This document shows positions 16,424-52,668 of a stretch of 64,000 nucleotides of DNA, in pieces. Within the stretch, counting starts at the first letter, position 1; every line of letters begins with the position of its first letter. Below the pieces are notes generated by a model. That model was not told the DNA's origin and made no database searches. It saw only the letters and a program-made list of their open reading frames with translations. The position numbers were made by a program, and so were the translations under genes. The stretch is taken from the NCBI GenBank assembly GCA_964475485.1, contig CAYYWY010000002.1:104257-168256 (forward strand). Direction: 5' to 3'. This DNA comes from an uncultured Nitrospiraceae bacterium (lineage in GTDB: Bacteria > Nitrospirota > Thermodesulfovibrionia > Thermodesulfovibrionales > UBA9159).

Positions 16424-16505
16424 GATGGCTATGTTTCAGACACTATTCTTAAAGGATGCTTCCCCCGGTTCGACCGGAGGCGCGGGCCTGAAAAGGAGTG
16501 ATGAT

Positions 16506-17729: not shown

Positions 17730-17753
17730 GTGAGAATGATCAGGAGGAAAGAT

Positions 17754-19058
17754 ATGAATAATCAAGCTCAAAAGCACAAGAGGATGCTCATTATGCTAAT
17801 GGCTGCGCTCCTGGTCGCTATTCCCGCGACCGGGGTGGCTGTTATTGATGGCATCAGCGGAACAACATTCAGCCTGACGGCAAAGGATGGTTATATCAAC
17901 ACAGGGGACGGAGATTCGGTTTACATGTGGGGATATGCCGACGGGGCAGGTCCAATGCAGTATCCCGGACCAACCCTGATCCTCAACCAGGGAAGTGTTG
18001 TTACGGTGACCCTGACTAACCAGCTGGCCGTTCCTGTTTCGATTGTTTTTCCCGGGCAGGATGTCACTGCCACGGGAGGGATGCCGGGGTTGATCACCCG
18101 GGAAGCGCCTCCCGGCGGTAGCGTCACTTATACGTTCACAGTCTCACAGCCTGGGACGTACATGTATCACAGCGGAACGCGTCCTGACCTTCAGGTCGAG
18201 ATGGGGCTAATAGGTGCGATAGTCGTTAGACCGGCACCAGGGCCAAATTGTCCAGCTCCGGCCCCGGACCCTTCGAAGCCGAGCAGGGGATACGCCTATT
18301 GCAGTCCTGATGCCTACTTCGACAGGGAATACCTCTTTCTCCTTTCCGATATGGACCCGTCGATCCATCAGCTTGTGGAGACGGGTAAAATGGAGAACGT
18401 AGACAATACGATGCGCTATCCGGTTTTATGGTTCATCAACGGGAGAAATCTTCCCGACACGCTGGCACCTGCCTTTGCATCCTGGCTTCCGAACCAGCCG
18501 TATAACATCTTTCCTCAGATGCATCCGTTTGAGAAGGTGCTGATGAGGATCATCGGCGGCGGAAGAGATCCACATCCATTTCACACTCATGGCGCAAACC
18601 ACCTCATCATCGCGCGCGACGGCAGGCTTCTGAAAACCACGGCGGCCACTTTACCGGACCTGGCCGAGTCCGATTTCACTACAACCTCCGTTCCCGGAGA
18701 GACAGTCGATGCTATTTACGTATGGACCGGCGAGAAGCTGGGCTGGGACATTTACGGCCATACTGATCCCACGTCTCCTTGCGATCCGACAGTGGAGTAC
18801 TGTCCTGACCACGGCAAGCCTTTTCCCGTAGTCCTCCCCAATCAGCTGGACCTGACCAATGGGATGTTCTGGAGCGGGAGTCCTTTCCTCGGAATTGAAG
18901 GTACTCTTCCTCCCGGTGAAGGCGGCTTTAATCCCTATGCCGGAATATTTATGATGTGGCACTCCCACAATGAAAAAGAATTGACGAATAACAATATTTT
19001 CGTCGGTGGCATGGCAACAATGGCGGTAATCCAGCCACCCGCCGCGCCGATCCCGTAA
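17754..19058 (+). CDS. Two-cupredoxin-domain multicopper-oxidase subunit B (domain 1 ligand-free; last domain has two HxH motifs, no T1 Cys)
   Basis: ATG 17754 after AGGAGGA; signal peptide. Domain 1 has VSIVFPGQ and GTYMYHSGTRP where MCOs have HWHG and WYHSH. The C-terminal domain has RDPHPFHTHGANH and IFMMWHSHNEKEL (HSH instead of HCH). Confidence 0.85.
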   Translation: MNNQAQKHKRMLIMLMAALLVAIPATGVAVIDGISGTTFSLTAKDGYINTGDGDSVYMWGYADGAGPMQYPGPTLILNQGSVVTVTLTNQLAVPVSIVFPGQDVTATGGMPGLITREAPPGGSVTYTFTVSQPGTYMYHSGTRPDLQVEMGLIGAIVVRPAPGPNCPAPAPDPSKPSRGYAYCSPDAYFDREYLFLLSDMDPSIHQLVETGKMENVDNTMRYPVLWFINGRNLPDTLAPAFASWLPNQPYNIFPQMHPFEKVLMRIIGGGRDPHPFHTHGANHLIIARDGRLLKTTAATLPDLAESDFTTTSVPGETVDAIYVWTGEKLGWDIYGHTDPTSPCDPTVEYCPDHGKPFPVVLPNQLDLTNGMFWSGSPFLGIEGTLPPGEGGFNPYAGIFMMWHSHNEKELTNNNIFVGGMATMAVIQPPAAPIP

Positions 19059-19071
19059 TGAGGAGGATGAA

Positions 19072-21717
19072 ATGAAAATGAAGGACATCTTGTCGGTCGG
19101 CAAACTCGGAGCGGTTGTTCCTATGCTGATGGTCGTCACCATTCTTGCGGCGGGAATATCCCATGGCGCCAGTGTTGACGTTTATCTCAAAGCAGGGGTG
19201 ACCACAAAGACTATTAACGGTGCTGCAATTGCTATGTGGGGCTTTGCTCAGTGTACGGACGGAACCTTTGCCTCTTGCGGGGCCGTATCAGTGCCAGGTC
19301 CGGCCCTGACGGCTACCGAAGGTGATGCTCTGAATATCCATCTCAGAAACGATCTTACCGGGCCATTCACCGAGCCTGTTTCGATCGTTATACCTGGCCA
19401 GATTACTGCCATGAATCCGGTCTGGATTGACGGCCTCGGAAATGTTGTCTCCACCGGCTCACGGTTGCCGGGCGACGTCACTTCGAGGGTGAGGTCTTTT
19501 ACGGCGGAGACGCCTGTAGGTGGAACCTCGACTTACACCTGGAGTAACGTTAAGTCGGGAGCGTACATATATCAGAGTGGTACACACCCGGCGGTTCAGG
19601 TACAGATGGGCTTATATGGAGTCCTCGAAGTCTTGCCGGTGACACCAGCCCGGGCTTACGAAGATCCTTCAACCGCTTATGATGCAAGGGTGGCACTTTT
19701 ATTCAGTGAAATCGATCCCGCCCTTCACAACGCAGTTGCGACAGGCACATACGGCCCCCCAGCTGGACCCGGAAGGATGACGAGCACAGTCAATTATAAT
19801 CCCGCCTACTTCCTCATTAATGGAGAACCGTACACGGCCGGTCTTGCGCCGATACCAGCTGGCCTTCCCGGGCAGAAGGTGCTTGTCCGTTTCCTTAATG
19901 CGGGGCTGGAATCGAAGGTTCCTACGCTCCAAAATCAATATATGACAGTGATCGCTGAAGACGGCAACCTCTATCCCAATCCGAAGGAACAGTACTCTGT
20001 ATTTCTGCCCGCAGGGAAAACTCTCGACGCAATTATGTCTTCTGCAAGCGCAGGATATATTCCAGTATATGACAGAATGCTGAACCTGACAAGCGGACCT
20101 GCATCGCCTGGAGGCATGCTGAGGTACCTGGAAATTGCCTCGCTTAACAAGTATGTTCTTACGGTGAACAAAGCAGGTTCAGGGACCGGGATAGTGGAGG
20201 CGACGAGTCTTCCCGGAGGCATAAGCTGCGGACTAACCTGCAATAGGGCATACAACGAGGGTACTATGGTTAAACTCAATGCGACACCTGCGGCAGGTTC
20301 GGTATTCGCCGGCTGGTCCGGGGCATGTGCCGGCACTGGTCCGACGTGCATTGTCACCATGGACGCCGCCAAGACAGTTACGGCAACTTTCAATGTTTCC
20401 GGTTCATGGATCACGGTGCTATCACCTAACGGAGGAGAGAACTTCCAGATTGGTACTACCCAGACGATTCGGTGGTCCTACAGCGGAACTCCCGGTACTG
20501 CTGTGCATATTCAGCTGCTCAAGGGGGGGGCGATTTATTCGACTATCACTAACAGTACCCCTATAGGTTCCGGTCAGTACAACTGGAACATCGGCAGATA
20601 CGCTGCCGGTAGTACGTACACGATAAAGATAACAAGTACGACAAACAGTCTTTACACAGACACGAGTGACGCTGCGTTCACTATATCCGGGGCTGGATGT
20701 GTCTATTCGATCTCGCCCACATCCATCTTCTTCCCAGTTGCAGGAGGCACTGGAAACGTGAATGTTACTGCATCTGCCGGATGTGCCTGGACGGCTGCAA
20801 GCAATGTGCCGTGGATAGCGATAACGGCGGGTGCAACCGGGACGGGCAGCGGGACAGTGACATACACTGTCTTTGCCAACACGGGAAATCTGAGAACCGG
20901 CACAATGACCATCGCAGGGAAGACCTTTACAGTGACACAGGACGGCAGTGGAGCCTGCACATATGCCATAGTTCCGACAAATCAGATCTTTAATGCAGCC
21001 GGAGGCTCAGGGAGTGTTACTGTAACCGCCCCTGCAGGATGCGCCTGGACTGCCGTGAGCAATGCTGCATGGATCACCGTTACAGGCGGAGCAGCCGGAA
21101 GCGGCAATGGTACGGTCACCTATTCGGTGGGCGCTAATGCGGGCGGTGCAAGAACCGGAACAATGACTATTGCAGGGCAAACGTTCACGGTGAATCAGTT
21201 GGCGCCGGTTGCTTGCACATATTCGTTGTCTCCAACGAGTCAGGCGTTTCTTGGTGCTGGGGGTACCGGCAGTGTGGCCGTGACAGCGCCGGCAGGTTGT
21301 GCATGGACCGCGGCGAGCAACGCCGCCTGGATCGCTGTTACCGGCGGGGCCGGGGGTAACGGCAACGGGACGGTGAATTATTCCGTAGCGCCGAACGCCG
21401 GGAATCAGAGGACAGGGACAATTACTATCGGAGGACAGACATTCACGGTGATTCAGGGCGGCGTTACAGTATCGGGCAAGATATTGAACGCCTCCGGTAT
21501 TCCAATTCCCGGGGTTCTGCTTACTCTTACAGGCCCGGTGACGACAACCACCACTACCGACAGATCGGGCGAGTACCAGATCAGGGGCGTGCCCGACGGC
21601 GGCTATATATTGACGCCGAGCCTGACAGGCTACGGCTTTACGCCTGCAAGCAGGTCATTCACTGTAAGCGGAAACAATGTTGAGGCACAGAACTTTACCG
21701 GAGCCAGATTGAGATAA
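19072..21717 (+). CDS. Copper-ligand-free two-cupredoxin-domain protein (subunit C) fused to InlB B-repeat, Kre9/KNH-like, 3x BACON-like and CarboxypepD_reg-like domains
   Basis: Signal peptide. MCO-like fold markers PGPALTATEGDALNIHLRN, VSIVIPGQ, GAYIYQSGTHPAVQVQMGLYGVLEV and YFLINGEPY..GQKVLVRFLNAG, but no HxH or HCH anywhere. Then [28 protein letters not shown]; WITVLSPNGGENFQIGTTQTIRWSYSG; three C.Y.I.PT...GC.WTA.SN..WI modules; VSGKILNASGIPIPGVLLTLTG...GEYQIRGVPDGGYILTP. Confidence 0.8.
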   Translation: MKMKDILSVGKLGAVVPMLMVVTILAAGISHGASVDVYLKAGVTTKTINGAAIAMWGFAQCTDGTFASCGAVSVPGPALTATEGDALNIHLRNDLTGPFTEPVSIVIPGQITAMNPVWIDGLGNVVSTGSRLPGDVTSRVRSFTAETPVGGTSTYTWSNVKSGAYIYQSGTHPAVQVQMGLYGVLEVLPVTPARAYEDPSTAYDARVALLFSEIDPALHNAVATGTYGPPAGPGRMTSTVNYNPAYFLINGEPYTAGLAPIPAGLPGQKVLVRFLNAGLESKVPTLQNQYMTVIAEDGNLYPNPKEQYSVFLPAGKTLDAIMSSASAGYIPVYDRMLNLTSGPASPGGMLRYLEIASLNKYVLTVNKAGSGTGIVEATSLPGGISCGLTCNRAYNEGTMVKLNATPAAGSVFAGWSGACAGTGPTCIVTMDAAKTVTATFNVSGSWITVLSPNGGENFQIGTTQTIRWSYSGTPGTAVHIQLLKGGAIYSTITNSTPIGSGQYNWNIGRYAAGSTYTIKITSTTNSLYTDTSDAAFTISGAGCVYSISPTSIFFPVAGGTGNVNVTASAGCAWTAASNVPWIAITAGATGTGSGTVTYTVFANTGNLRTGTMTIAGKTFTVTQDGSGACTYAIVPTNQIFNAAGGSGSVTVTAPAGCAWTAVSNAAWITVTGGAAGSGNGTVTYSVGANAGGARTGTMTIAGQTFTVNQLAPVACTYSLSPTSQAFLGAGGTGSVAVTAPAGCAWTAASNAAWIAVTGGAGGNGNGTVNYSVAPNAGNQRTGTITIGGQTFTVIQGGVTVSGKILNASGIPIPGVLLTLTGPVTTTTTTDRSGEYQIRGVPDGGYILTPSLTGYGFTPASRSFTVSGNNVEAQNFTGARLR

Positions 21718-29989: not shown

Positions 29990-31927
29990 ATGAAACTGGA
30001 TGACCTCAGGCTCAGCACCAAGTTCAGCCTCGCCGTGGGGCTTATTCTCCTCATTTTCTGCGTAGTTTTTTCCTTTCTCCTGTACCTCCATCTGAAAAAC
30101 AGGGTAATCGAGGACGCCAATGAGAAGACCCTTATCATCATGGCACAGATGGACGCTGTCGGCAATTACATCAAAGAAGAACTGCGCCCCAGAATGTTTG
30201 AAGTTCTCCCGCAGAACAATGAAGATGATTTCGTGGTCGAGGCGATGTCAACTACTCATGTCAAGCTTGGGGTCATGGAAAGGTTCAACAAAGGTTTGAA
30301 GGATTACATCTACAAAAGGGTATCAACTAACCCCATTAACCCCAGAAACAAGGCTGACTCCCTGCATGAGGAGAAGATCGCTTATTTCCAGGGGGACCAT
30401 AACAGGAAATGGTGGAACGGGGTAATTAAGATAGACGGACTCGAATATATAATGAGAGCGAAGCCGGTAATCACTGAGAGGAGCTGTCTGAAGTGCCACG
30501 GTAACCCTTCCAATGCGCCCCGGGGACTCGTAAGAAAATATGGGATAAAGTCGGGCTTTGGATGGAAGGAGGGGGATGTCATGGGTGTCGACTCGGTTAC
30601 GATTCCCCTTGCCGTAACCCTCGGACAAATTAAGAGTATTGCCATATCGACTTTTGTTTTCGGTTTTGCCACCCTTGTCTTCCTTTTTATATCATTGCAG
30701 GGTGCTTTCTGGAGCCTCGTGAGCAGACCCTTAACCAGGCTGACGACGGTATTCAAGGGCATTGCCAAAGGCACCGAGTCCCTCAATCAGGACATTCCCA
30801 TCGCTGCAAAGGATGAGATAGGAGAGTTGACAGAGTCCTTTAACCAGATGGCATATCATCTCTACAGCGCCCAGGAAGATCTGAGGAAGAACGCAGAGAC
30901 CCTCCATTCGATATTCGAGGGGATAAGCGATCCGATCGCCTTGGTTAATCCCGACTGTTCCCTTGAGATCACCAATACCACATATAGAGAATGGGTCGCA
31001 AACGGGATTACGGCTGTCTTCACAAGTGAATGTTCTTCGAGGGACTGTGATACCGATGCCGTCTGCCCTGCCTGTTTCCTCGAAAGGGTGACTAGGGAAA
31101 AGAAGGCACTGTCGGAATACTGGGATGGAGGCAACGGTCACTTCTATTACGTGCATTTCTATCCCATTTTCGATACAGAAGGGAACGTCATTAAGGCAGT
31201 GCATTACGTAAAGGACATTACCGACAAGAAGAAGATGGAGGAACAGATGAGTATGGCTGACAAGCTGGCCGCCCTGGGGCAGCTTTCCGCTGGCATCGCT
31301 CATGAGATAAACAACCCCCTCGGGGGGATACGGCTTTGCTTCAACAACCTCATGACCACCTCAATGGACGAGGAGACGAAGAGGATACACGTCGATGTAA
31401 TAAACTCGGGACTCATAAAGATCCAGGACATCATCAGTCAGCTGCTGGACTTCTCGAAGAAATCGGACTTAAGTGTTTCGAAAGTTTCCATCAATAAGCT
31501 TATCGAGAATGTAATGAAGCTCACCGAGTATCTTGTTTCCGAGAAGGATATCAGGGTTACGAAAAACCTTGCCCCTGACATGCCTGAGATCATGGTGGAT
31601 CAGAACAAGATGGAGCAGGTCTTTCTCAATATCATGCTGAACGCGGTTCAGGCTATGGACAACGGAAGACCCAGAGAACTGACCATCGAGACGTCATCAA
31701 AGGACGGCTACTGCAGCGCTTCCTTTGCTGATTCGGGACCGGGGATTTCCGAAACAGTTATGCCTCATATCTTTGAGCCTTTTTTCAGCACCAAGCCGGT
31801 GGGCGAAGGAACGGGTCTCGGCCTTTCGGTGAGCAAGTCCATCGTCGAGCAGCACAATGGCAGGATCGCCGTTGAGACCTCGAGTCAGGGAACGAGATTT
31901 ACGGTCAGGATACCTGTCTCGCTATGA
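29990..31927 (+). CDS. Sensor histidine kinase with periplasmic heme-c (DUF3365-like) domain, HAMP, Cys-rich PAS, HisKA and HATPase_c
   Basis: N-terminal TM; ERSCLKCHGNPSNAPRGLVRKYG (CxxCH); second TM plus HAMP (DEIGELTESFNQMAYHL); PAS with ECSSRDCDTDAVCPACFLE; H-box LSAGIAHEINNPL; G-boxes DSGPGI and GEGTGLGL. Confidence 0.85.
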   Translation: MKLDDLRLSTKFSLAVGLILLIFCVVFSFLLYLHLKNRVIEDANEKTLIIMAQMDAVGNYIKEELRPRMFEVLPQNNEDDFVVEAMSTTHVKLGVMERFNKGLKDYIYKRVSTNPINPRNKADSLHEEKIAYFQGDHNRKWWNGVIKIDGLEYIMRAKPVITERSCLKCHGNPSNAPRGLVRKYGIKSGFGWKEGDVMGVDSVTIPLAVTLGQIKSIAISTFVFGFATLVFLFISLQGAFWSLVSRPLTRLTTVFKGIAKGTESLNQDIPIAAKDEIGELTESFNQMAYHLYSAQEDLRKNAETLHSIFEGISDPIALVNPDCSLEITNTTYREWVANGITAVFTSECSSRDCDTDAVCPACFLERVTREKKALSEYWDGGNGHFYYVHFYPIFDTEGNVIKAVHYVKDITDKKKMEEQMSMADKLAALGQLSAGIAHEINNPLGGIRLCFNNLMTTSMDEETKRIHVDVINSGLIKIQDIISQLLDFSKKSDLSVSKVSINKLIENVMKLTEYLVSEKDIRVTKNLAPDMPEIMVDQNKMEQVFLNIMLNAVQAMDNGRPRELTIETSSKDGYCSASFADSGPGISETVMPHIFEPFFSTKPVGEGTGLGLSVSKSIVEQHNGRIAVETSSQGTRFTVRIPVSL

Positions 31928-33285
31928 AGGGAAAGATACTCATCATCGAAGACGAACCTTCCATGAGGCTTGGGATGAGCCACTTCCTTTCATCTTCCGG
32001 ATATGAGGTGAAGGTTTGCGAGGATGGCGCGAAAGGGATTTCGGCCATTGAGAAGGAGGCCTTCGATCTTGTCATTACGGACCTCAAGCTTCCCTATTAT
32101 GACGGGCTCACGATTCTCCACCGGATAAAGACGGTCTCACCCGATACCGGCGTCATTATCGTGACTGCTTATGCGGATGTGAAGACCGCCGTGCAGGCGA
32201 TGAAGGACGGGGCCTTTGACTATATCGCAAAACCGTTCTCCAATGAGGAGTTGGTGATAACCGTCGACAGGTTCCTTAAGTTCCGCACCCTCGAAAGAGA
32301 GTTGCTCCGGCTGAGGAGTTCCTTCCGCGAGGGAACATGTTTCGAGAATATCATAGGTGTAAGCAGCTCAATGAGAGACGTATTTGACCGGATAGAATCC
32401 GTTGCGAAGACTGACGTGCCGGTTCTTATTCAGGGCGAGAGCGGCACGGGGAAGGAACTCGTTGCAAACGCTATTCACAATATGAGCCCGCGCAGGGATA
32501 AACCCTACATAAAGATAAACTGTGCCGCCATTCCGGAGGCCCTTTTCGAGACGGAACTCTTCGGACATGAGAGGGGGACATTCACGGGAGCGACCGAAAC
32601 AAGGAAAGGGAAATTTGAGACAGCCAACGCTGGGAGCATCTTCTTTGACGAGATAGGGGAAATGCCCCTCGGATTACAGGCAAAGCTTCTCAGGGTCATT
32701 GAAGACCACACCGTCACCCGCCTTGGAGGCGACAAGCCTGTGAAGGTCGATGCGAGAGGCATTTATGCTACGAGCAAGAATCTTAAGGAGGTGATCAGGA
32801 CAGGGGGGTTCAGGGAAGACCTCTTTTACAGGATCAATGTCGTACCCATCGTACTCCCTCCTCTCAGGGAGAGGAAGGAAGATATCCCTTATATTATGGA
32901 ATTCTTCATCAAGTATTTTGGAGAAAAGTTTTTAAAACCGGAGTTGAAGATAACCCCGTCGGCCTATGAGGCCCTGATGGCGTACCGTTATCCTGGAAAT
33001 GTACGGGAACTGAAGCATGCCATAGAGAGGGCCGTGCTTCTTTCAAAGAACGGACTGATCGATCTGGGTGACCTTCCCGAAGAGTTTTCCAGCGGGGGGA
33101 GGCCTGAAGGCTCTGTAATTCATGAAGCAACTCTGCAATCAAATGTCGCAGGGCTGGAGAAACAGATGATCATCAATGCCCTTAAAGAGGCGAAAGGCAG
33201 GAGGATTGAGGCATCAAGAATTCTGGGGATCAGCAGAAAGGTTCTCTGGAAGAAGATGAGAGACTACGATATAGGCGCGACCTAA
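31924..33285 (+). CDS. Sigma54-dependent response regulator (NtrC family: REC, AAA+, Fis-type HTH)
   Basis: ILIIEDEPSMR...VITDLKLP (REC); GESGTGKELVANAIH; ETELFGHERGTFTGA (GAFTGA variant); C-terminal EASRILGISRKVLWKKM. Start overlaps the kinase stop. Confidence 0.9.
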   Translation: MKGKILIIEDEPSMRLGMSHFLSSSGYEVKVCEDGAKGISAIEKEAFDLVITDLKLPYYDGLTILHRIKTVSPDTGVIIVTAYADVKTAVQAMKDGAFDYIAKPFSNEELVITVDRFLKFRTLERELLRLRSSFREGTCFENIIGVSSSMRDVFDRIESVAKTDVPVLIQGESGTGKELVANAIHNMSPRRDKPYIKINCAAIPEALFETELFGHERGTFTGATETRKGKFETANAGSIFFDEIGEMPLGLQAKLLRVIEDHTVTRLGGDKPVKVDARGIYATSKNLKEVIRTGGFREDLFYRINVVPIVLPPLRERKEDIPYIMEFFIKYFGEKFLKPELKITPSAYEALMAYRYPGNVRELKHAIERAVLLSKNGLIDLGDLPEEFSSGGRPEGSVIHEATLQSNVAGLEKQMIINALKEAKGRRIEASRILGISRKVLWKKMRDYDIGAT

Positions 33286-33387: not shown

Positions 33388-33402
33388 TGGCACTGTCCTT
33401 GC
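33388..33402 (+). promoter_or_regulatory. Sigma54 (-24/-12) promoter
   Basis: TGGCACtgtccTTGCg is a near-perfect match to TGGCAC-N5-TTGC. It lies about 100 nt after the NtrC-type regulator gene and about 125 nt before the rhodanese ATG. Confidence 0.75.
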
Positions 33403-33524
33403 GAGCTCTTTACTATGACTATGAGAAGCATCCATCTTTTTCCTGATATTCCCATTCCTTAGAATTCCAATGGCGATACTATCGGGGGCCGGATGTATTT
33501 CACAAAATAAGAGAAGAGGAGGCT

Positions 33525-34543: not shown

Positions 34544-34578
34544 ATGCCCGATATTTGCTGAAAGGAGGCGAAGGAGAA

Positions 34579-34851
34579 ATGAAGACAGTTGCAATGTCGA
34601 TAAGCCTGGTATTCATGATGTTTCTTACGGGTGCGGGCTTCGCCGCACATCAGGAGGAAAAGGCGGCTCCAAAAGGAATCGTCACGAAAATAGCGGTTTC
34701 GGAATACGAGGTGACGATTAAGGACGACAAGGGAAAGGAAACTAAGGTAAAAGCCAAGGATATTTCCGATATCCAGGTCGGTGACAGCGTCATTGTCACA
34801 CAGGATGGCAAGATAAAGAAGGCTGTGAAGCCGAAGACAGGGGGGTATTAA
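34579..34851 (+). CDS. Small secreted Lys-rich protein, unknown function
   Basis: ATG 34579 after AAAGGAGG..AAGGAGA. Signal peptide MKTVAMSISLVFMMFLTGAGFAA. The mature part is about 65 aa and beta-rich (VTIKDDKGKETKVKAKDISDIQVGDSVIV). Confidence 0.55.
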   Translation: MKTVAMSISLVFMMFLTGAGFAAHQEEKAAPKGIVTKIAVSEYEVTIKDDKGKETKVKAKDISDIQVGDSVIVTQDGKIKKAVKPKTGGY

Positions 34852-36596: not shown

Positions 36597-36631
36597 GGTT
36601 CGATGGTGCAAGAGAAAGGAGGTGAGTGTGG

Positions 36632-37156
36632 ATGACAAACAGATTGAAAGGATGTCTTGTTATTGCAGTAGCCGTCGCATTTCTGGCAACAGGCGTTCAG
36701 GTGTTTGCGGGTGAGTGGTCTGCCGAGGCCATGAAGAAGGTCGAGGAGCTCAAGATCATGTCGAGGGACAAGAAGGACATGGCAGAGTCGATGCCCGGAG
36801 TCAAGAAGATTACTGGTGAAGAGCTCAAGAAATGGCTCGACGAGGGGAAGAAAATCGTAGTCCTCGACAACCGCGTTCCTACCGACTATGAGAAAGAACA
36901 TATACCCGGCGCAGCGCGGCTGGCCCCGGATGATCTTCTGGCAAAGGGGCGAAAGGCTGCCGAGTTCCTGAAAAAGGACGACACAATAGTCTTTTACTGA
37001 AACGGGGTAAAATGCTGGAGGTCTTCCGGCGCAATAGTCCTGTTGCAGGACGCGGGGTACAAGAACCTTCACTGGTACAGAGAAGGTCTCCCTGACTGGA
37101 TTAAGAAGGGCTACGACACGACAGAAGGAAAAGAACCAGGAACTTGGAAGAAGTAA
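36632..37156 (+). CDS. Secreted single-domain rhodanese with in-frame UGA (selenocysteine) at the catalytic-Cys position
   Basis: ATG 36632 (signal peptide MTNRLKGCLVIAVAVAFLATGVQVFAG). Reading through TGA 36998-37000 gives ...VVLDNRVPTDYEKEHIPGAARL...DDTIVFY-U-NGVKCWRSSGAIVLLQDAGYKNLHWYREGLPDWIKKGY...*. This is a complete rhodanese fold of the YCNGxxCxxS type with U replacing the active-site C. The ORF track stops at the TGA (36626-37000). Confidence 0.75.
37014..37030 (+). promoter_or_regulatory. Bacterial SECIS-like hairpin
   Basis: gctgga GGTCT tccggc: a 6-bp stem (one G-U pair) with apical loop GGUCU, beginning 14 nt after the UGA. The loop sequence is the same as in the E. coli fdhF SECIS apical loop (GGUCU). 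Confidence 0.65.
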
Positions 37157-37231: not shown

Positions 37232-37393
37232 ATGAAGAGAATTATCATCGAGATTGTGCTCATTCTACTGATTTCTATGCTCTTGTCTCTTTTCTATAAT
37301 GCGGTTTCACCGACTGGGATAAAACTATTCCCCGGGAAGGCAGCTAAAGGGGCAGAAATGAAAGAGGGTGTTTGGAGGACGGAGGAGGCATAA
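37232..37393 (+). CDS. Small single-TM membrane protein
   Basis: MKRIIIEIVLILLISMLLSLFYNAVSPTGIKLF... (53 aa). It resembles the membrane-anchor N-terminus found on some rhodanese/MauE-associated proteins. Short, so uncertain. Confidence 0.4.
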   Translation: MKRIIIEIVLILLISMLLSLFYNAVSPTGIKLFPGKAAKGAEMKEGVWRTEEA

Positions 37394-37394
37394 C

Positions 37395-37865
37395 GTGGGA
37401 GCGATTGCATCGTTCATTTTCAGGGTACTCATCGGAGGTATCTTCATAGCTGCAGGTCTTGCGAAAATATCCGATCCGGTCCGGTTTCTCCTTACGCTGA
37501 GGGAATTCGACCTATTTCCCGAAATCACCGTCCGGTTTCTAGCGATCTACCTCCCGTGGCTCGAATTTCTCCTAGGACTCTTTCTCATGCTCGGATTACT
37601 CTACCGAACGAGTTCCCTTCTCCTCATCGTTTTAAATGCGATGTTCGGCATTGCAATCGCATCGGTGATGCTGCGCGGCATGGAGATCGATTGCGGCTGT
37701 TTTGGACTCCTGGCGGATATCCTGAAGATCCCAGACATGGCGGATATGAGAGCGGTTATAAGGAACACCCTCTTTATCGGCATGTGTCTATATATTTTTC
37801 TCTCTAAGAGAACGGTGGTTTCGCTGGAGGGTTATATAAATAGGCTGAGTAGAATGGAGGGATAA
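37395..37865 (+). CDS. MauE/DoxX-family redox-associated membrane protein
   Basis: GTG 37395, 6 nt after GGAGGAGG. FRVLIGGIFIAAGLAKISDP...LPWLEFLLGLFLMLG...MEIDCGCFG (the characteristic DCGCFG motif). Confidence 0.75.
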   Translation: MGAIASFIFRVLIGGIFIAAGLAKISDPVRFLLTLREFDLFPEITVRFLAIYLPWLEFLLGLFLMLGLLYRTSSLLLIVLNAMFGIAIASVMLRGMEIDCGCFGLLADILKIPDMADMRAVIRNTLFIGMCLYIFLSKRTVVSLEGYINRLSRMEG

Positions 37866-39023: not shown

Positions 39024-39758
39024 GTGGATTTAGGAATCCTGGGTAAGGTTACATTCGATTTTCAGTTCCTTTCAGGTCTTGTAAGCATTGTTATTATCGA
39101 TCTGATTTTGGCGGGTGACAATGCCGTTGTCATCGCAATGGCCGTGAGGTCTCTGCCCAGAGAGCAGAGGAAAAAAGGGATTATTTTAGGCGCCGGAGCC
39201 GCTGTCTTGTTGAGAGTCATCGTCACGTTCTTTGTGTCGCAGCTGCTTCAGATAAGCTTTATAAAACTTGTCGGAGGCGTGGTGATATTGTGGATAGCAG
39301 TAAGACTCTTTATGGAGGGCGTTCCGGAGGAAGAAATCGAAAAGGAAGCAACAACGATTGCGCAGGCTATAAAGCTCATAGTGATTGCGGATATCACCAT
39401 GGCGATCGACAATATGCTGGCAGTCGGAGGCGCGTCCCACGGCAATCTGTTCCTCCTTCTTTTCGGGCTTGGTCTGAGCATCCCCCTTGTCGTCTTTACG
39501 AGCAACCTGCTTTCTATGCTGATGGATAAGTATCCGGTTATTATATACATAGGCGCTGCGGTGCTCGGGAAGGTGGGCGGTGAGATGATCATAACGGATC
39601 CCTTTACCGCGGGAATTCTGAAGCCCGGCAAATTGGCAATATATTCCGTGGAAGCGTTTTTTGCTGTCGGCGTCATCGTCGCAGGAAAGCTCTGGATGAA
39701 ATGGAAGATATCCAGGGTTGAAAGAGAGGAACGTGTTCATGAGAGCAGCGCAGACTGA
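39024..39758 (+). CDS. TerC-family (YjbE-like) integral membrane protein
   Basis: IIDLILAGDNAVVIAMAV...IADITMAIDNMLAVGGAS: the duplicated DN-containing TerC motifs. GTG start after AAGGAGAGAA. Confidence 0.85.
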   Translation: MDLGILGKVTFDFQFLSGLVSIVIIDLILAGDNAVVIAMAVRSLPREQRKKGIILGAGAAVLLRVIVTFFVSQLLQISFIKLVGGVVILWIAVRLFMEGVPEEEIEKEATTIAQAIKLIVIADITMAIDNMLAVGGASHGNLFLLLFGLGLSIPLVVFTSNLLSMLMDKYPVIIYIGAAVLGKVGGEMIITDPFTAGILKPGKLAIYSVEAFFAVGVIVAGKLWMKWKISRVEREERVHESSAD

Positions 39759-39767
39759 GGAGGTATT

Positions 39768-40571
39768 ATGTCCATCCTGACGATATCGAGAGAATATGGA
39801 AGCGGCGGTAGAGAGATTGGTAAGGCTGTGGCCGATGCGATGCACTATGAATACATCGACAAGGCGAGGATCCTTTCTGACGTAAGCGCACATGGCGGGA
39901 AGTGGGAGAAATGGGGAAGGGACCTTGATGAGCACTGCCCCACCCTCTGGGAGAAGTATGACTGGTCTTTTCGGGGTTTCGGTGCGCTGATTCAGAATCT
40001 TATTCTTGACTACGCGCTCAGGGACAAGGTAGTGATCGTGGGGAGGGGGGGGAATTTCCTGTTAAAGGATATTCCGCATGCGCTCAGGATTCGTGTTGTG
40101 GCGCCCCTCGAAAAAAGGGTGGCGAGGATTATGGAAAGGGAATCCGTCGACAGGGAAACAGCACACTGGCTGGCCGAAAAGACCGACAGGGAAAGGGCCT
40201 GTTTTCTCAATATCCTTTACGGCAGACCCTGGGACGATCCGGCGGAGTATGATGAGGTGTTCGACACAGGCAGTAAGTCCATCGAGGAGATTACGGGTAT
40301 CGTGATAAACGCTCTTACGGAAAGGGAGATATTCAGTACCGCTGAGGCAAGGAAAGTTCTCGAGATGCGTGCGCTTGCAGCAAAGGTTAAAGCAGGGATT
40401 CTAACGGATCCCGGGTTTTTTGTCCCGACCCTTGATGTACAGCACGACGAAAAAGGCCTTATTCTTCGTGGGGTGGTCCATAAACCCGAAGAGCACAAGC
40501 GTGTCGAAGAAGCGGCAAGGGAACTGGCGGGAGAAGTGCCCGTAAGGTGCGAGCTCCACTATCGTGGATGA
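39768..40571 (+). CDS. Cytidylate kinase-like family protein with C-terminal BON-like domain
   Basis: MSILTISREYGSGGREIGKAVADAM...VIVGRGGNFLL...ALRIRVVAPLEKRVARIMERE is the typical Cytidylate_kin2 family. The C-terminus LDVQHDEKGLILRGVVHKPEEHKRVEEAAREL is BON-like. Confidence 0.75.
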   Translation: MSILTISREYGSGGREIGKAVADAMHYEYIDKARILSDVSAHGGKWEKWGRDLDEHCPTLWEKYDWSFRGFGALIQNLILDYALRDKVVIVGRGGNFLLKDIPHALRIRVVAPLEKRVARIMERESVDRETAHWLAEKTDRERACFLNILYGRPWDDPAEYDEVFDTGSKSIEEITGIVINALTEREIFSTAEARKVLEMRALAAKVKAGILTDPGFFVPTLDVQHDEKGLILRGVVHKPEEHKRVEEAARELAGEVPVRCELHYRG

Positions 40572-47742: not shown

Positions 47743-47988
47743 GTGGAAGATATCAGAGTGGACAAAAAGATAAACATAAAGGGCCTTGTCTGCCCTTACA
47801 CGTTTGTGAAGTCGAAGCTTGCTGTGGAGGATCTTGAGGTGGGCCAGGTTCTGGAGATACTTCTTGATTATGAAGAAGCGTCGAGGAGCATCCCCAAATC
47901 CATGGAAGATCACGGGCAGAAGGTGCTGAGGGTCGAGAAGATCAACGAAACCGACTGGATAATCCAGATAAGGAAGGAGAAGGAGTGA
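47743..47988 (+). CDS. tusA: TusA/SirA-family sulfurtransferase
   Basis: INIKGLVCPYTFVKSKLAVEDLEVGQVLEILLDYEEASRSIPKSMEDHGQKV: the conserved Cys-Pro motif and fold pattern of TusA-like proteins. GTG start. Stop overlaps the next gene's start. Confidence 0.8.
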   Translation: MEDIRVDKKINIKGLVCPYTFVKSKLAVEDLEVGQVLEILLDYEEASRSIPKSMEDHGQKVLRVEKINETDWIIQIRKEKE

Positions 47989-48788
47989 TGGAATTCACCG
48001 AGGACCAGCTCCAGAGGTACAGCAGGCACATAATCCTTCCGGAGGTTGGTGGTAAGGGGCAGAAGAAACTTCTCCGTGCGAAGGTGTTCATTGTCGGCGC
48101 CGGCGGACTGGGGTGTCCCGTGGGGTATTATCTCGCTGCCGCGGGGATTGGCACCATAGGTATTGTCGACAACGATTCCGTTGAACTCAGCAATCTCCAG
48201 CGCCAGATAGCGCATAATACGAGTCGTCTCGGCGTTCTTAAAGTTGACTCGGCAAAGGAGACTTTCGAGGCATTGAACCCTGATGTGAAGGTGATTGGGA
48301 TACGGGAGAGGATTACAAAGGACAATATCAAGGATCTGATAAGGGATTATGATGTTGTGGTCGACGGCAGTGATAATTTCCCCACGAGGTACCTCGTTAA
48401 TGACGCATGCGTGATGCTCCGGAAACCTCTTGTGAGCGGCGCCATCCTGAGGTTCGAGGGGCAGGTCACCACTATTGTACCAGGGGAAGGGCACTGCTAC
48501 CGCTGTCTCTTTGAAGAAATGCCCCCTGCGGGCCTCGTGCCTTCATGTCAAGAGGCGGGTGTAATCGGTGCCATACCGGGTGTGGTCGGCTCGCTTCAGG
48601 CCATCGAGGTCTTCAAACTGATCCTCGGGAAAGGGGATGTCCTCAGGAACACCCTTCTTATCTTTGACGCCCTCAAGACGACCTTTAGAAGGGTGAAAGT
48701 GCCGAAGAACCAGGACTGTCCCGTCTGCGGAGAGCATCCTTCTATTACGGAGCTGCAGGACTATGACGCAGGATACTGCAGGATATAA
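47985..48788 (+). CDS. moeB: MoeB/ThiF-family E1-like adenylyltransferase
   Basis: QLQRYSRHIILPEVGGKGQKKL...IVGAGGLGCPVGYYLAAAGIG...DNDSVELSNLQRQ...DGSDNFPTRYLVND; zinc CxxC pairs CYRC and CPVC. Confidence 0.9.
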   Translation: MMEFTEDQLQRYSRHIILPEVGGKGQKKLLRAKVFIVGAGGLGCPVGYYLAAAGIGTIGIVDNDSVELSNLQRQIAHNTSRLGVLKVDSAKETFEALNPDVKVIGIRERITKDNIKDLIRDYDVVVDGSDNFPTRYLVNDACVMLRKPLVSGAILRFEGQVTTIVPGEGHCYRCLFEEMPPAGLVPSCQEAGVIGAIPGVVGSLQAIEVFKLILGKGDVLRNTLLIFDALKTTFRRVKVPKNQDCPVCGEHPSITELQDYDAGYCRI

Positions 48789-48996
48789 CCTGAGTCAGTA
48801 ATACTTTCGCCCGGCATGGGAGAACTGTATTTCAGAAAGATTGAATTGGTCGTTGATGCGCTGCAAGGGTTGGATCAAATGGTGATGTATTTGCCTTCAT
48901 GGAAGTTATGGAACAGGGCGTTACCTGCTCCATGGCGAACCCAGACAATCTTGCTGCAAGCCAACCTTCCCATGCCTCGTCGTGGGTCATAGTGAA

Positions 48997-49440
48997 ATGC
49001 GCCGCTTGATTATCCCCGAACATATCTTTGAAGAGATGCTTGCCCATTGCAGGGAAGGCTATCCCGACGAGGCATGCGGCATACTCGCGGGGAGAGGCGA
49101 TGAGGTTCAGAAGATTTACAAAGCTGACAATATTGAGCATTCTCCAGTCAGGTATGAGATGGACTCAAGAGAACTCATCCGCGCCAATAAGGATATGCGT
49201 GAGAACAACTTGTCAATTCTTTCGATCTATCACTCCCATCCGTCCGCGCCTGCATATCCCTCTCAGACTGATATCAGTCGTGCCAAGCCGTGGAACGGCC
49301 TGCCGCCTGTCTATGGGGAAGCTGCTTACATCATTGTCAGTCTTTTCGAAAAAGAGCCTGTCGTAAAAGCCTTTTCGATCGGGGAGGGAATAGGGGAAGT
49401 TGAGGTCATAATAAGGGAGAAATCACCGGGTTTCTCATAA
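48997..49440 (+). CDS. JAMM/MPN+ metalloprotease (Mec+/CysO-hydrolase-like)
   Basis: EACGILAG...SIYHSHPSAPAYPSQTDI is the JAMM motif (E...HxHx7Sx2D). ATG 48997 preferred; the ORF track starts at GTG 48982. Confidence 0.85.
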   Translation: MRRLIIPEHIFEEMLAHCREGYPDEACGILAGRGDEVQKIYKADNIEHSPVRYEMDSRELIRANKDMRENNLSILSIYHSHPSAPAYPSQTDISRAKPWNGLPPVYGEAAYIIVSLFEKEPVVKAFSIGEGIGEVEVIIREKSPGFS

Positions 49441-49714
49441 ACCCGTTATTTCTGTGCCACGCCTCTCTCGAGAAGCATCCAGCTCTCAAGCGGGATAATA
49501 GAAATAAAGATGTCCGCCTCGCCTCTGTCACTCCCGATTGTTTGCACGGTGAGTTGCCGGAGGAGACAGAACAAGTATAGGAACTGTGGTGAGACTGACA
49601 GTCCCGTGATAATCCAATCAATCTATTTTATTTTGTACCCGTTTGGAGTAAAATATACTTTATTTCAACAAAGGATCCGGCAATTCTTCGCATTCAGTTA
49701 GACGGGAGGTGAAT

Positions 49715-50956
49715 ATGGGTTACGTGAGAGGTCTTAAGTGCAGAGAGTGCGGCAGGGAGTATCCTGTCGATCCCATATATGTGTGCGAATTCTGTTTCGG
49801 TCCGCTCGAGGTCGTGTACGATTACAAGAAAATAAAACGCGTTCTTACGCGGAAGAACATAGAGAAGCGAGAAAAGAATCTCTGGCGGTACAAGGAGCTG
49901 CTCCCCATAGACGGCGAACCCCAGGTTGGTCTGAAGTCCGGCTTCACACCTCTCATCAGGGCCGATAGCCTCGCGGAAGAACTGGGCGTCAGGGAACTGT
50001 ACATAAAGGACGACACGGTTGCCCATCCCACGCTGTCGTTCAAGGACAGGGTGGTTGCGGTGGCCCTTACCAAGGCAAAGGAGTTCGGTTTTGATACGGT
50101 TGCGTGTGCGTCGACGGGCAATCTTGCCCACTCTGTTTCGGCCCATGGAGCAAAGGCGGGTTTCAAGCGGTTTGTCTTCATACCGGCCACCCTGGAGCCG
50201 AGCAAGATTGTGGCGTCCCTTGTTTATGAGCCAAACCTGATTGCTGTTGACGGGAACTATGACGAGGTGAACAGGCTCTGCAGCGAGATCGCGAACAAAT
50301 ACAGGTGGGCATTCGTGAACATCAATATACGGCCGTTCTATGCTGAGGGTTCAAAGACCCAGGGATTTGAAATAATCGAACAACTCGGCTGGAAGGCCCC
50401 TGACAACATTGTGGTCCCATGCGCCAGCGGTTCGCTGCTTACAAAGGTCTGGAAGTCGTTCAAGGAATTCAAGGAGATAGGGATATTGAAAGAACTGGAT
50501 ACCAGGGTTTTCGCCGCCCAGGCAACGGGCTGCTCCCCCATATCCGCTGCCGTAAAGCAGGGTACTGATGTGATTAGGCCAGTAAAGCCAAACACTATAG
50601 CGAAATCCCTGGCAATCGGCAATCCCGCGGACGGCTTTTATGCGCTTCAGGCTGTTAAGGAGACTGGAGGATACGGCGAGGATGTCTCCGACGAAGAGAT
50701 CATCGAAGGGATAAAGATGCTTGCGAGGACAGAGGGGGTTTTTGCGGAAACCGCAGGGGGCGTCACTCTGGCCTGCACGAAGAGACTCATCGAGACGGGA
50801 AAGATAAACAGGGATGAGACAACGGTCATGTGTATCACGGGCAACGGGCTCAAGACCCAGGAGGCGCTGAACGGACATACCGCGTCTCCCCACTACATAA
50901 AACCGAACCTTGCGTCCTTTGAGGAAGTGCTTGGAAGGATTCAAAGCACAGAATGA
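49715..50956 (+). CDS. Threonine-synthase-family PLP enzyme with N-terminal zinc ribbon (candidate sulfur-carrier-dependent O-phosphohomoserine sulfhydrylase, MetM-like)
   Basis: LKCRECGREYPVDPIYVCEFCFGPLEV (4-Cys ribbon); HPTLSFKDRVVAVAL (PLP-Lys motif); ACASTGNLA; fold-type II PLP pattern. A separate canonical thrC lies 650 nt downstream. ATG 49715, 5 nt after GGGAGG. Confidence 0.7.
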   Translation: MGYVRGLKCRECGREYPVDPIYVCEFCFGPLEVVYDYKKIKRVLTRKNIEKREKNLWRYKELLPIDGEPQVGLKSGFTPLIRADSLAEELGVRELYIKDDTVAHPTLSFKDRVVAVALTKAKEFGFDTVACASTGNLAHSVSAHGAKAGFKRFVFIPATLEPSKIVASLVYEPNLIAVDGNYDEVNRLCSEIANKYRWAFVNINIRPFYAEGSKTQGFEIIEQLGWKAPDNIVVPCASGSLLTKVWKSFKEFKEIGILKELDTRVFAAQATGCSPISAAVKQGTDVIRPVKPNTIAKSLAIGNPADGFYALQAVKETGGYGEDVSDEEIIEGIKMLARTEGVFAETAGGVTLACTKRLIETGKINRDETTVMCITGNGLKTQEALNGHTASPHYIKPNLASFEEVLGRIQSTE

Positions 50957-51080
50957 AGGGAATCAGCAACAGCGGGCACAGAGACCAGCTGCAGGGTGCT
51001 CAAAGAAAACTGAAAACTAATGTGCAATCTGTGGCGAAAATATATTTGGCCCGGCTCGTCCGGGTTGGGAGGTGAGATAA

Positions 51081-51356
51081 ATGGCTGTAAAAGTGAGGAT
51101 TCCGACTCCTCTCCAGAGATTGACCCAAGGCAAGGAGGAGGTCGAGGGCACTCCTGGTACCATTATGGAACTTGTGACAGACCTTGACAAGAGGTTCCCG
51201 GGCTTGGGAGAGAGGATTTCCGAAGGCGGCAAGATTCGCAGGTTCGTCAACATTTATGTGAACGAAGAGGACATACGCTTTCTGAAGGCGGAGGAAACCG
51301 TAGTGAAGGACGGGGACGAGGTATCCATTGTCCCTGCTATCGCAGGAGGCATATAA
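51081..51356 (+). CDS. MoaD/ThiS-family sulfur-carrier protein (C-terminus ...AIAGG-I)
   Basis: MAVKVRIPTPLQRLTQGKEEVEG...IRRFVNIYVNEEDIRF...VKDGDEVSIVPAIAGGI: beta-grasp carrier with a diglycine followed by one extra residue. Confidence 0.8.
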   Translation: MAVKVRIPTPLQRLTQGKEEVEGTPGTIMELVTDLDKRFPGLGERISEGGKIRRFVNIYVNEEDIRFLKAEETVVKDGDEVSIVPAIAGGI

Positions 51357-51368
51357 AGAGGAGGATAT

Positions 51369-51605
51369 ATGAAACGGCGTGTGAAGTTGACCTTCCCGCA
51401 GCATCTCATTAAAGAACCGGTGATTTTCACCATGGCAAAGAAGTTCGATGTGATGCCGAACATCAGAAGGGCGAGGGTGACCGAGACGGTGGGAGAGATG
51501 GTGCTGGAACTGGAAGGGGCGGAGGAGAATCTCGAGAAGGGGATTCGGTCCCTGAGGGAGCAGGGAGTGGATGTGGAGCTTGTGGAAGGAGACATTATAG
51601 AGTAA
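51369..51605 (+). CDS. Stand-alone NIL-domain protein
   Basis: [66 protein letters not shown] is the NIL domain pattern (as in the MetN C-terminus and methanogen NIL-ferredoxin proteins). Confidence 0.7.
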
Positions 51606-51606
51606 C

Positions 51607-52668
51607 ATGGAATGGCGCGGAATAATAGAAGAATACAGACCATTCCTTCCTGTTTCTGATGCTACGCCGGTCATCACTCTGAAAGAGGGCAATACCCCTC
51701 TTATCAGATCGACGAACCTTGATAGGAAGCTCGGCATGGACCTCGAAGTCTACCTGAAGTTCGATGGTGAGAATCCTACGGGTTCTTTTAAGGACAGAGG
51801 GATGACCATGGCCATTTCCAAGGCGGTGGAAACAGGCTCGAAGGCCGTGATCTGCGCGTCGACCGGGAACACCTCTGCCTCTGCAGCGGCCTATGCGGCA
51901 AGGGCCGGAATAAAGGCGATCGTGATCATACCCGAGGGTAAAATAGCCCAGGGCAAACTGGCGCAGGCGCTAATTCACGGTGCTCATGTGCTCCAGATCG
52001 AGGGGAATTTCGACGATTCGCTCAAGATTGTGAGGGCCCTGTCAGAGATGTACCCTGTAACCCTCGTGAATTCAGTTAACCCTTTCCGGCTCGAAGGACA
52101 GAAATCCGCAGCCTTTGAGATCTGTGACCAATTAGGCTTTGCTCCCGACTTTCATGCCCTTCCGGTGGGAAATGCGGGCAATATAACTGCATACTGGAGG
52201 GGATATAAGGAGTTCAGGGAAAGGGGCAGGATCGCGGAACTGCCCAGGATGCTCGGGTTCCAGGCTGCCGGAGCGGCTCCGATTGTCCTTGGACGTCCCG
52301 TGGAAAAGCCGGAGACAGTCGCCACCGCGATAAGGATAGGTAAGCCTGCCAGCTGGAGGGGCGCAGAGGCGGCGAGGGATGAGTCCGGAGGAAGGATCGA
52401 AGCAGTGACGGATCAGGAGATACTGAATGCCTACGGTCTTATAGCGTCCTCGGAGGGGATATTCTGTGAGCCTGCTTCTGCAGCATCGGTTGCCGGTGTC
52501 ATAAAATTATATAAGGAAGGCTATTTCAGGAAAGGCGCAAGAATCGTCTGCACCCTGACAGGGCACGGACTGAAGGATCCTGATACGGTATTTAAGGTTG
52601 CCCTGGAACCTTTGAGAGTTAAGGCAGAGATAGAGATCGTGTCAAAGGTGATCGAAGAGATACTATGA
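51607..52668 (+). CDS. thrC: Threonine synthase
   Basis: [10 protein letters not shown]...[19 protein letters not shown]...[20 protein letters not shown]...[13 protein letters not shown]. Confidence 0.95.

Follow-up and report, generated by a model that had tools for sequence, protein, structure and literature searches.

A 64,000-nucleotide stretch of DNA from an uncultured Nitrospiraceae bacterium (assembly GCA_964475485.1, contig CAYYWY010000002.1, positions 104,257 to 168,256), referred to here as the window, contains at 36632-37156 on its forward strand a rhodanese gene that is very probably a selenoprotein gene. An in-frame TGA at 36998-37000 falls at the catalytic position of the encoded protein and is predicted to be read as selenocysteine (Sec), and from comparison of sequences we put the probability of this reading at about 0.88. 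We favor it because Sec and Cys pair in a single alignment column, because 45 orthologues carry TGA at this same position, because the codons downstream of the TGA are under selection, and because a hairpin with a GGUC loop is conserved immediately beyond it.

The gene and its read-through product

The rhodanese gene comprises 174 codons, corresponding to 122 amino acids (aa), Sec123, and a further 51 aa. In the list of open reading frames (ORFs) it is represented by a 124-aa ORF that begins with GTG at 36626 and is closed by the TGA, or by 122 aa if counted from the ATG at 36632; past the TGA exactly 51 further sense codons, NGVKCWRSSGAIVLLQDAGYKNLHWYREGLPDWIKKGYDTTEGKEPGTWKK, follow in frame before a TAA at 37154-37156. 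The ATG, the better of the two starts, is preceded by the Shine-Dalgarno-like AAGGAGGTG, and a public protein, P0002, starts with MTNRL, as does the product initiated at this ATG. When the TGA is translated as Cys, the read-through product matches the Pfam Rhodanese family PF00581 over residues 63-158, covering profile positions 3-101 of 102, with a score of 64.4 bits that passes the gathering threshold of 22.2. Since the match reaches past the TGA, the rhodanese domain is complete only with the 51 downstream codons. A preliminary description of this DNA had proposed exactly this, with the 124-aa ORF ending at the TGA and the next 51 codons completing the domain, and both the sequence and the Pfam match confirm it.

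The protein is predicted to be secreted or periplasmic from an N-terminal signal peptide that is evident by inspection, with a basic n-region, a hydrophobic core, and a V-F-A cleavage motif, and this type of N-terminus is kept across the homologues. An AlphaFold model of P0010, the closest Cys homologue, has a predicted local distance difference test score (pLDDT) below 50 over approximately the first 22 residues (segments 8-12 and 14-22), the aligned N-terminal region. The periplasmic location given in the preliminary description therefore stands as far as the signal peptide is concerned, although it depends on reading by eye and not on a predictor.

Sec/Cys pairing and selection downstream of the TGA

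Homologues from a search of 5.8 billion proteins fell into two classes by length. Members of the long class (165-178 aa) contain the sequence ...V[N/F]YCNG[I/V]KCWRS... and continue to ...KKGYxTxEGK(EPGTWKK), whereas those of the short class (118-124 aa; about 30 protein clusters) stop exactly at ...V[F/N]Y. Two members of the short class, L001 and L002, regain the conserved C-terminus when translated through the stop, and the Cys homologues run for another 44-52 residues past the TGA-equivalent position, contrary to the possibility, raised in the preliminary description, that homologues might genuinely end there. In a 20-sequence alignment the Sec/Cys column, the Cys five residues on, and the W and S that follow are all invariant. 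An exhaustive profile search recovered 19 clusters at E <= 1e-30, several of which are truncated representatives.

We scanned one genome per species, which yielded 72 related loci, and added many more by a DNA-pattern scan of metagenomes. TGA is present in nine of the 72 species-representative loci as well as in dozens of metagenome contigs. The metagenome scan also produced many chance matches; two of the loci passing the peptide regular expression, L086 and L197, are without family context and were dropped. Once duplicates were removed, the unique sequences numbered 45 with TGA and 61 with a Cys codon (TGC or TGT) in the same column, so that the alignment called for in the preliminary description does reveal Sec/Cys pairing. 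The motif U-N-G-[V/I]-K-C-W-R-S, in which U denotes Sec, is found in 45/45 of the Sec forms.

Across the 44 codons past the TGA, the 45 TGA forms have a proportion of synonymous differences (pS) of 0.672 and of nonsynonymous differences (pN) of 0.113, giving a pN/pS of 0.17, and in all of them the terminal stop lies at codon 44, 51 or 52 after the TGA, which is the normal C-terminus of the family. Purifying selection of this strength indicates that the downstream codons are translated. A lack of conservation in these codons would, in the terms of the preliminary description, have spoken against a selenoprotein; they are conserved in Cys and Sec forms alike. A rough neighbor-joining tree places the Sec and Cys forms interspersed with one another, such that at least nine Sec/Cys switches are needed, with the deep branches (Sulfurimonas and others) being all Cys. 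The rough tree thus suggests that this family switches readily between Sec and Cys.

Active site and fold

A profile search of the PDB pairs YCnGvkCWRS with YCGG--GFRS of the rhodanese 6mxv, aligning the U column with the catalytic Cys. This bears out the earlier assignment of the UGA to the active-site Cys of a rhodanese family, and the second Cys that had been noted five residues after the Sec (Cys128) occupies a position that is invariant in the alignments. The active-site loop, U-N-G-V-K-C-W-R, has eight residues, two more than in 6mxv, and does not conform to the classical six-residue sulfurtransferase loop CRXGX[R/T]; CxGxxCxxS loops were also found by profile search in other multi-rhodanese proteins. 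The P0010 model, with a pLDDT of 89.5 overall and approximately 97 over the mature domain, positions the active-site loop between a strand at 118-121 and a helix at 129-139, and a product cut at the TGA would, according to this model, be without the active-site loop, two helices and a strand. Searching with the model using Foldseek retrieved rhodanese and Cdc25 folds only, at 18-29% identity, and sequence identity to any solved rhodanese is about 20-28%.

We note that rhodanese domains of the same type are fused to other modules in the distant relatives P0215, P0194, P0304 and P0188. The fusion partners of these relatives include CarboxypepD_reg-like and AhpC/TSA peroxiredoxin or thioredoxin-like domains, as well as arrays of up to six rhodanese repeats, and the loop of P0215 is YCNGDRCWR. 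Combinations of this kind suggest that the broader group functions in thiol redox chemistry.

A conserved SECIS-like hairpin

Just beyond the TGA is a hairpin that resembles a bacterial selenocysteine insertion sequence (SECIS). Its arms, gctgga at 37014-37019 and tccggc at 37025-37030, enclose the loop ggtct at 37020-37024, with 13 nt between the A of the TGA and the stem. The published bacterial SECIS (bSECIS) model (criteria in PMC13188914) specifies a loop of 3-9 nt, a stem of 4-16 bp, G at loop positions 1 and 2, a UGA-to-loop distance of 16-37 nt, and a minimum free energy of -7.5 kcal/mol or lower. The hairpin conforms in every respect, with a 5-nt loop that starts with GG, a 6-7-bp stem, a distance of 19 nt, and -8.3 to -8.9 kcal/mol; the spacing had been described beforehand as compatible with such models, and the remaining parameters agree as well.

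GGUC is present in 45/45 Sec forms within a hairpin of 6-8 bp, and conservation extends to synonymous sites. The Arg codon that contributes the first two bases of GGUC is NGG (AGG or CGG) in 45/45 Sec forms versus 8/17 close Cys forms, and pS in the Sec forms is 0.48 over codons 1-13 compared to 0.76 over codons 14-44 (ratio 0.63), as against 0.71 and 0.83, respectively, in the close Cys forms (ratio 0.86). Where S-P-A is encoded in place of S-S-G, a 6-bp stem persists with its pairing displaced by one nucleotide (GCUGGA-GGUC-UCCAGC), and in L014 the closing A-U has become C-G through two synonymous substitutions. Among the 2315 TGA triplets of the window, 75 (3.2%) have a model-compatible hairpin and 0.4% have one as strong as that of the rhodanese gene; none of the 19 TGA stops of the window's longest ORFs is followed by a SECIS-like hairpin.

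The SECIS of Escherichia coli fdhF, the sequence of which is present at 100% identity in the fdhF genes of 5419 E. coli genomes, is similarly a hairpin within the coding sequence just 3' of the UGA. The hexamer AGGUCU is common to both elements, its GGUC forming part of the loop in each and beginning 18 nt after the UGA in fdhF and 19 nt after it in the rhodanese gene, whereas their stem sequences are unrelated. The fdhF SECIS has a bulged U on its 5' arm; any extra U in the rhodanese-gene hairpin would lie in the loop or on the 3' side. The preliminary description located the hairpin correctly and likened its GGUCU loop to that of fdhF, a likeness that the shared hexamer upholds. As evidence, the hairpin holds up in being conserved across the Sec forms, but taken alone it is weaker than was implied, being partly dictated by the peptide and occurring also in Cys forms. 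By itself we regard it as weak evidence for Sec insertion, and it is the comparative evidence, which is strong, that we take to be decisive.

Gene neighborhood and a proposed mechanism

The features of the rhodanese gene and its surroundings are listed in Table 1. The gene had been described as embedded in a dedicated operon, and comparison of the Sec-form loci with enough flanking sequence does reveal a conserved module, in which a YeiH/PSE permease is upstream in 23/23 loci and a MauE/DoxX protein is downstream in 28/34. In L002 the pair adjoins SoxZ, and in L004 it adjoins sat, aprAB and sulfate transporters. In Hyphomicrobium, YeiH is reported as the gene most strongly induced by thiosulfate (526-fold) and is proposed to be a sulfite exporter. 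The order of the cluster after MauE/DoxX is universal stress protein, TerC/YjbE, and cytidylate-kinase-like/BON, with TerC being present in 12/20 and the kinase-like/BON gene in 8/15 Sec-form loci; the TerC protein matches the YjbE subfamily, whose members are putative metal transporters. The tandem rhodanese has weak similarity to ExtH of a selenite/tellurite operon, with a score of 39.8 versus a cutoff of 200.

Table 1. Features of the Sec-rhodanese locus. Coordinates are those of the window; TM, transmembrane.
Feature	Coordinates	Strand	Basis or remarks
Two-component system: histidine kinase and sigma-54-dependent response regulator	29990..33285	+	Pfam; same pair upstream of module in L002 and L003
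Sigma-54 promoter-like TGGCACTGTCCTTGCG (candidate)	33388..33403	+	Gap between activator gene and first operon gene
Secreted tandem rhodanese, 325 aa, classical CQTGTRS loop	33525..34502	+	Pfam; also in L006
Small secreted protein, ~90 aa, ending KPxTGGY	34555-34851	+	Conserved; 46% identity to L006:2665-2937
YeiH/PSE-family permease PF03601, 510 aa	34933..36465	+	Upstream neighbor of Sec-rhodanese
Shine-Dalgarno-like AAGGAGGTG	36616..36624	+	Read from sequence; 7 nt 5' of ATG 36632
Predicted Sec-type signal peptide MTNRLKGCLVIAVAVAFLATGVQVFA, then GE	36632..36709	+	By inspection
UGA predicted as selenocysteine, residue 123	36998..37000	+	Sec/Cys column; aligned to catalytic Cys of 6mxv
Codon of partner Cys128 (U-NGVK-C)	37013..37015	+	Invariant column; TGC in all Sec forms; inside hairpin 5' arm
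SECIS-like hairpin GCUGGA-GGUCU-UCCGGC	37014..37030	+	6 bp, 7 bp with U37013-G37031
Single-TM peptide, 53 aa, MKRxxxEI...SLxYNxVSPTGIK	37232..37393	+	Overlaps MauE gene start; 44% identity to L006:5250-5405
MauE/DoxX membrane protein, DCGCFG motif	37368..37865	+	Downstream neighbor
TerC/YjbE-family membrane protein, then cytidylate-kinase-like/BON protein	39024..40571	+	Frequent, not universal downstream neighbors

The histidine kinase encoded upstream has a periplasmic Tll0287-like domain (29990-30730) with a CLKCH haem-c motif between two transmembrane segments, which suggests that it may be a haem-based periplasmic redox or ligand sensor controlling a sigma-54 operon. The promoter-like TGGCACTGTCCTTGCG has a single mismatch to TGGCAC-N5-TTGCW, at the last (W) position. 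Matches to the sigma-54 pattern over the whole window are not above chance, and it is therefore the location of this sequence that argues for it.

A plausible scheme would be as follows. With the ribosome positioned at the UGA, SelB carrying Sec-tRNA(Sec) would bind the hairpin in the manner known from E. coli fdhF, and the full-length protein would then be exported via the Sec translocon. In the periplasm Sec123 could attack the sulfane sulfur of thiosulfate, a polysulfide or a persulfide to form a Se-S adduct, and Cys128, within the same enlarged loop, might either resolve the adduct to an intramolecular selenenylsulfide or cap the Sec. The Sec123/Cys128 pair would probably be reset by the MauE/DoxX protein, with its CGC motif, as a redox partner in the membrane, and the YeiH/PSE permease would transport its putative substrate, a sulfur oxyanion such as sulfite, sulfate or thiosulfate, from one side of the membrane to the other, with the whole module being transcribed from the sigma-54 promoter under the control of the periplasmic haem-c sensor kinase. 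This specific sulfur-redox mechanism is advanced tentatively, and it may well prove wrong in its particulars. Two observations count against it: the eight-residue loop differs from those of proven sulfurtransferases, and therefore the substrate could be another anion, and MauE is absent from about a fifth of the loci.

Alternative explanations

A number of observations weigh against the insertion of Sec at this TGA. No SelA, SelB or SelD was identified by Pfam among 29 ORFs of the window that were searched; ARAGORN found tRNA-Asp and tRNA-Val but no tRNA-Sec in its 64 kb; and neither Sec machinery nor a tRNA-Sec was seen in the flanks of the related loci (ARAGORN, L001-L078). The fold of the single 66-nt sequence is unremarkable (z = -1.3), and Rfam searches, of the whole window at the gathering threshold and of 36950-37120 at E up to 10, gave no SECIS match and two meaningless hits. 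The arms of the stem fall on the codons of C-W (UGC UGG) and [S/P]-[G/A] (NCC GGC or CCA GCN) in the peptide C-W-R-S-[S/P]-[G/A], so the stem is partly dictated by the peptide; because these codons are self-complementary, the Cys forms L009, L010, L020, L023 and L031 keep much of the hairpin, some of them with GGUC. RNAalifold returned no compensatory pairs from the codon alignment because the S-P-A variants use the register shifted by one nucleotide, and hairpins were instead enumerated for each sequence; true covariation is nonetheless sparse, and support comes mainly from conservation. In the Cys forms the hairpin may be the fossil of a SECIS, or else a pre-adaptation through which Sec is easily gained.

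If the TGA were a genuine stop, with the gene truncated or decaying or else specifying a 122-aa product and the downstream frame being a relic, then the 121-122-aa product annotated by gene callers and by NCBI (for example MBF0328391.1, a 'hypothetical protein') would be correct, and the failure to see Sec machinery in the window would be as expected. We consider this extremely improbable, since the 122-aa product would be deprived of its active-site loop together with two helices and a strand, since 45 sequences keep the TGA, an open downstream frame evolving at a pN/pS of 0.17, and the family's normal stop, and since neutral evolution of the downstream codons was tested and not seen; nor is there an in-frame start or ribosome-binding site past the TGA from which the remainder could be expressed separately. 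Reading of the UGA without selenium, whether by near-cognate Trp or Cys tRNAs, by programmed read-through stimulated by the hairpin, or by local reassignment of TGA, would fit with Sec machinery that is reported at the level of the clade, and with a hairpin that is in part a by-product of the peptide and occurs also in Cys forms. It too is very unlikely. TGA is the ordinary stop of 19 other window ORFs, which have no SECIS-like hairpin, and is also the terminal stop of six Sec-form orthologues, and it is therefore not reassigned. The UGA, moreover, takes the place of the catalytic Cys, for which no residue but Sec or Cys makes chemical sense, and the invariant GGUC loop at fdhF-like spacing is a signature of SelB recognition. 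A selB gene with an embedded selC has been reported in Nitrospirae, and both Sec-decoded proteins and selB/selC have been reported in Nitrospirota including Thermodesulfovibrionia; on the basis of this literature the clade, as distinct from the source genome itself, is competent for Sec decoding. The IlvC protein encoded in the window has its closest relatives in this clade, with 85-90% identity to proteins from Nitrospirae/Thermodesulfovibrionales metagenome-assembled genomes and 86% to that of Dissulfurispira thermophila.

A further explanation accepts the selenoprotein but not the sulfur chemistry, and supposes that the enlarged C/U-x4-C-W-R-S loop binds selenite, tellurite or arsenate, the protein being a periplasmic metalloid reductase or detoxifier with TerC as its neighbor. 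Loop length governs substrate in the rhodanese family, as with the CX5R loops of Cdc25 and Acr2, and the loop here is two residues longer than in sulfurtransferases; a TerC-family gene accompanies 12/20 loci, and the tandem rhodanese weakly resembles ExtH. However, the partner that is always present is a permease with links to sulfur oxyanions, other loci have SoxZ, sat, aprAB and sulfate transporters alongside, the TerC match is to putative metal transporters of the YjbE subfamily, and the ExtH score is far under its cutoff. We thus view a metalloid role as unlikely, and retain a Sec-containing rhodanese acting on sulfur compounds as the preferred reading.

In the metagenome loci L089, L109, L118, L120, L127, L143, L168 and L174, TGA is used both internally at the catalytic position and terminally after ...EGK. 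Such doubly TGA-using Sec forms constitute a natural internal control for context-dependent decoding.

Relation to known rhodanese selenoproteins

Rhodanese-like selenoproteins have been catalogued by Zhang, Gladyshev and co-workers (PMC13188914, PMC9312934, PMC1976440), in agreement with the statement of the preliminary description that rhodaneses are among the prokaryotic selenoprotein families listed in surveys. A 2026 review lists five forms, with the motifs UxxS, UxxG, CxU, UxxG and, in TsoB, UxxxxU (PMC13188914). Forms 1, 2 and 4 (UxxS, UxxG and UxxG; examples WP_010941598.1, MBM9537886.1 and MCY3690685.1), which we set apart by their published motifs, resemble the protein described here in having a single PF00581 domain, Sec at the catalytic Cys position, and Cys homologues, in having been predicted by Sec/Cys pairing together with a bSECIS, and in occurring mostly in anaerobic sulfur-cycling bacteria. 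They differ in that the new motif is U-N-G-[V/I]-K-C, in which position +3 is V or I in 45/45 sequences and which is therefore neither UxxS nor UxxG; the new protein also has a loop longer by two residues, an invariant second Cys, and a predicted signal for secretion. LYCAU (NF041203; form 3, CxU) is likewise small, with one rhodanese domain whose active-site loop contains a Sec/Cys pair, but its Sec is two residues after the catalytic Cys, and the new protein scores 51.1 bits against that model, below its cutoff of 115.

The best-scoring NCBIfam model is TsoB (NF045694; E = 4.5e-15, with residues 45-165 on profile positions 32-158), although at 54.7 bits the match is far below the membership cutoff of 805. 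TsoB, form 5, is described in the review as resembling a rhodanese/DsbD fusion (Haft & Tolstoy 2025, cited in PMC13188914). Of the listed motifs, its UxxxxU is the one that the new motif most resembles. So far as that account goes, the rhodanese loop of each protein contains a pair of chalcogen residues spaced four apart (UxxxxU versus UxxxxC), and both associate a rhodanese with a membrane thiol-redox module, DsbD being fused in TsoB and MauE/DoxX (CGC) lying alongside here. The new protein is distinguished from TsoB by being 174 aa in length without a DsbD or membrane domain, by having one Sec and not two, and by being without TsoA or TsoC neighbors. From the NCBIfam score and the motif table of the review we infer that the UxxxxU and UxxxxC motifs are equivalent at the level of alignment columns.

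Rhodaneses that handle sulfur in the periplasm or at the membrane include Sud of Wolinella, PspE of E. coli, and the DoxX-SseA complex of Mycobacterium tuberculosis. With these the new system has in common a secreted single-domain rhodanese, a DoxX-type partner, and a tandem SseA-like rhodanese in the operon; to our knowledge, all three rely on Cys in a six-residue loop that lacks a further Cys, and they are not selenoproteins. The U-x4-C rhodanese, as read from its sequence, matches none of the five listed motifs or the curated models, and we regard it as a known kind of enzyme in what is possibly a new form.

Other features of the window

Other TGA triplets of the window that part ORFs in the same frame were considered as Sec codons and rejected. 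These are the TGA at 17727, between two multicopper-oxidase-like genes, and those at 39756, which splits TerC from the kinase-like gene, and at 40569; they are coincidental results of neighbors sharing a frame, and were rejected because each half has a complete domain or because orthologues end there. The multicopper-oxidase-like ORFs (16425-19058; 434 and 442 aa) are parted only by the TGA followed by an ATG, and are probably paralogous neighbors and not one read-through protein, since each has its own N-terminal cupredoxin domain. Their flanks (context 10805-21717) hold an ORF of 1872 aa and a BACON/CarboxypepD_reg protein of 881 aa.

On the reverse strand, an uninterrupted ORF at 60541-62820 encodes a heavy-metal P-type ATPase that begins with an HMA domain; this ATPase family has known selenoprotein members (UxxC). 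At 47985-52668 there is a cluster consisting of a ThiF/MoeB-like adenylyltransferase, a 152-aa ORF, and two pyridoxal phosphate (PLP)-dependent (PALP) enzymes, one of which has an N-terminal NinF-like zinc-ribbon match; this cluster resembles those for sulfur-carrier-protein-dependent cysteine or homocysteine biosynthesis.

Implications

The recognition of this gene as a probable selenoprotein gene would correct a systematic annotation error, in that all of the public TGA-form records we compared are represented as a 118-124-aa fragment or a 'hypothetical protein', and it would enlarge the prokaryotic selenoproteome by a well-supported subfamily that is possibly a new form. Secreted Sec-x4-Cys rhodaneses may be widespread among the Nitrospirota (Thermodesulfovibrionia) and Desulfobacterota of groundwater and sediment. 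A Sec-dependent polysulfide reductase has been shown experimentally in Geobacter, with homologues mainly in Desulfobacterota and Thermodesulfovibrionia (PMC13510729), and the rhodanese would similarly place a selenoenzyme in the periplasmic sulfur chemistry of Thermodesulfovibrionia. The conserved pairing of the rhodanese with YeiH/PSE and MauE/DoxX provides a testable handle on two poorly understood families of membrane proteins.

Taken jointly, the observations would describe a rhodanese selenoprotein of a sixth form not yet catalogued, acting in a periplasmic module for sulfur redox chemistry that depends on selenium, and a proto-SECIS built from codons that lies behind the frequent switching, a combination that has a little less than an even chance of holding. 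The unusually frequent exchange of Sec and Cys could be explained by the near-SECIS that pre-exists in the Cys forms, where GCUGG pairs with CCRGC, and a proto-SECIS encoded in this manner by the codons of a conserved peptide would offer a simple model for the repeated conversion of a Cys protein to a selenoprotein.

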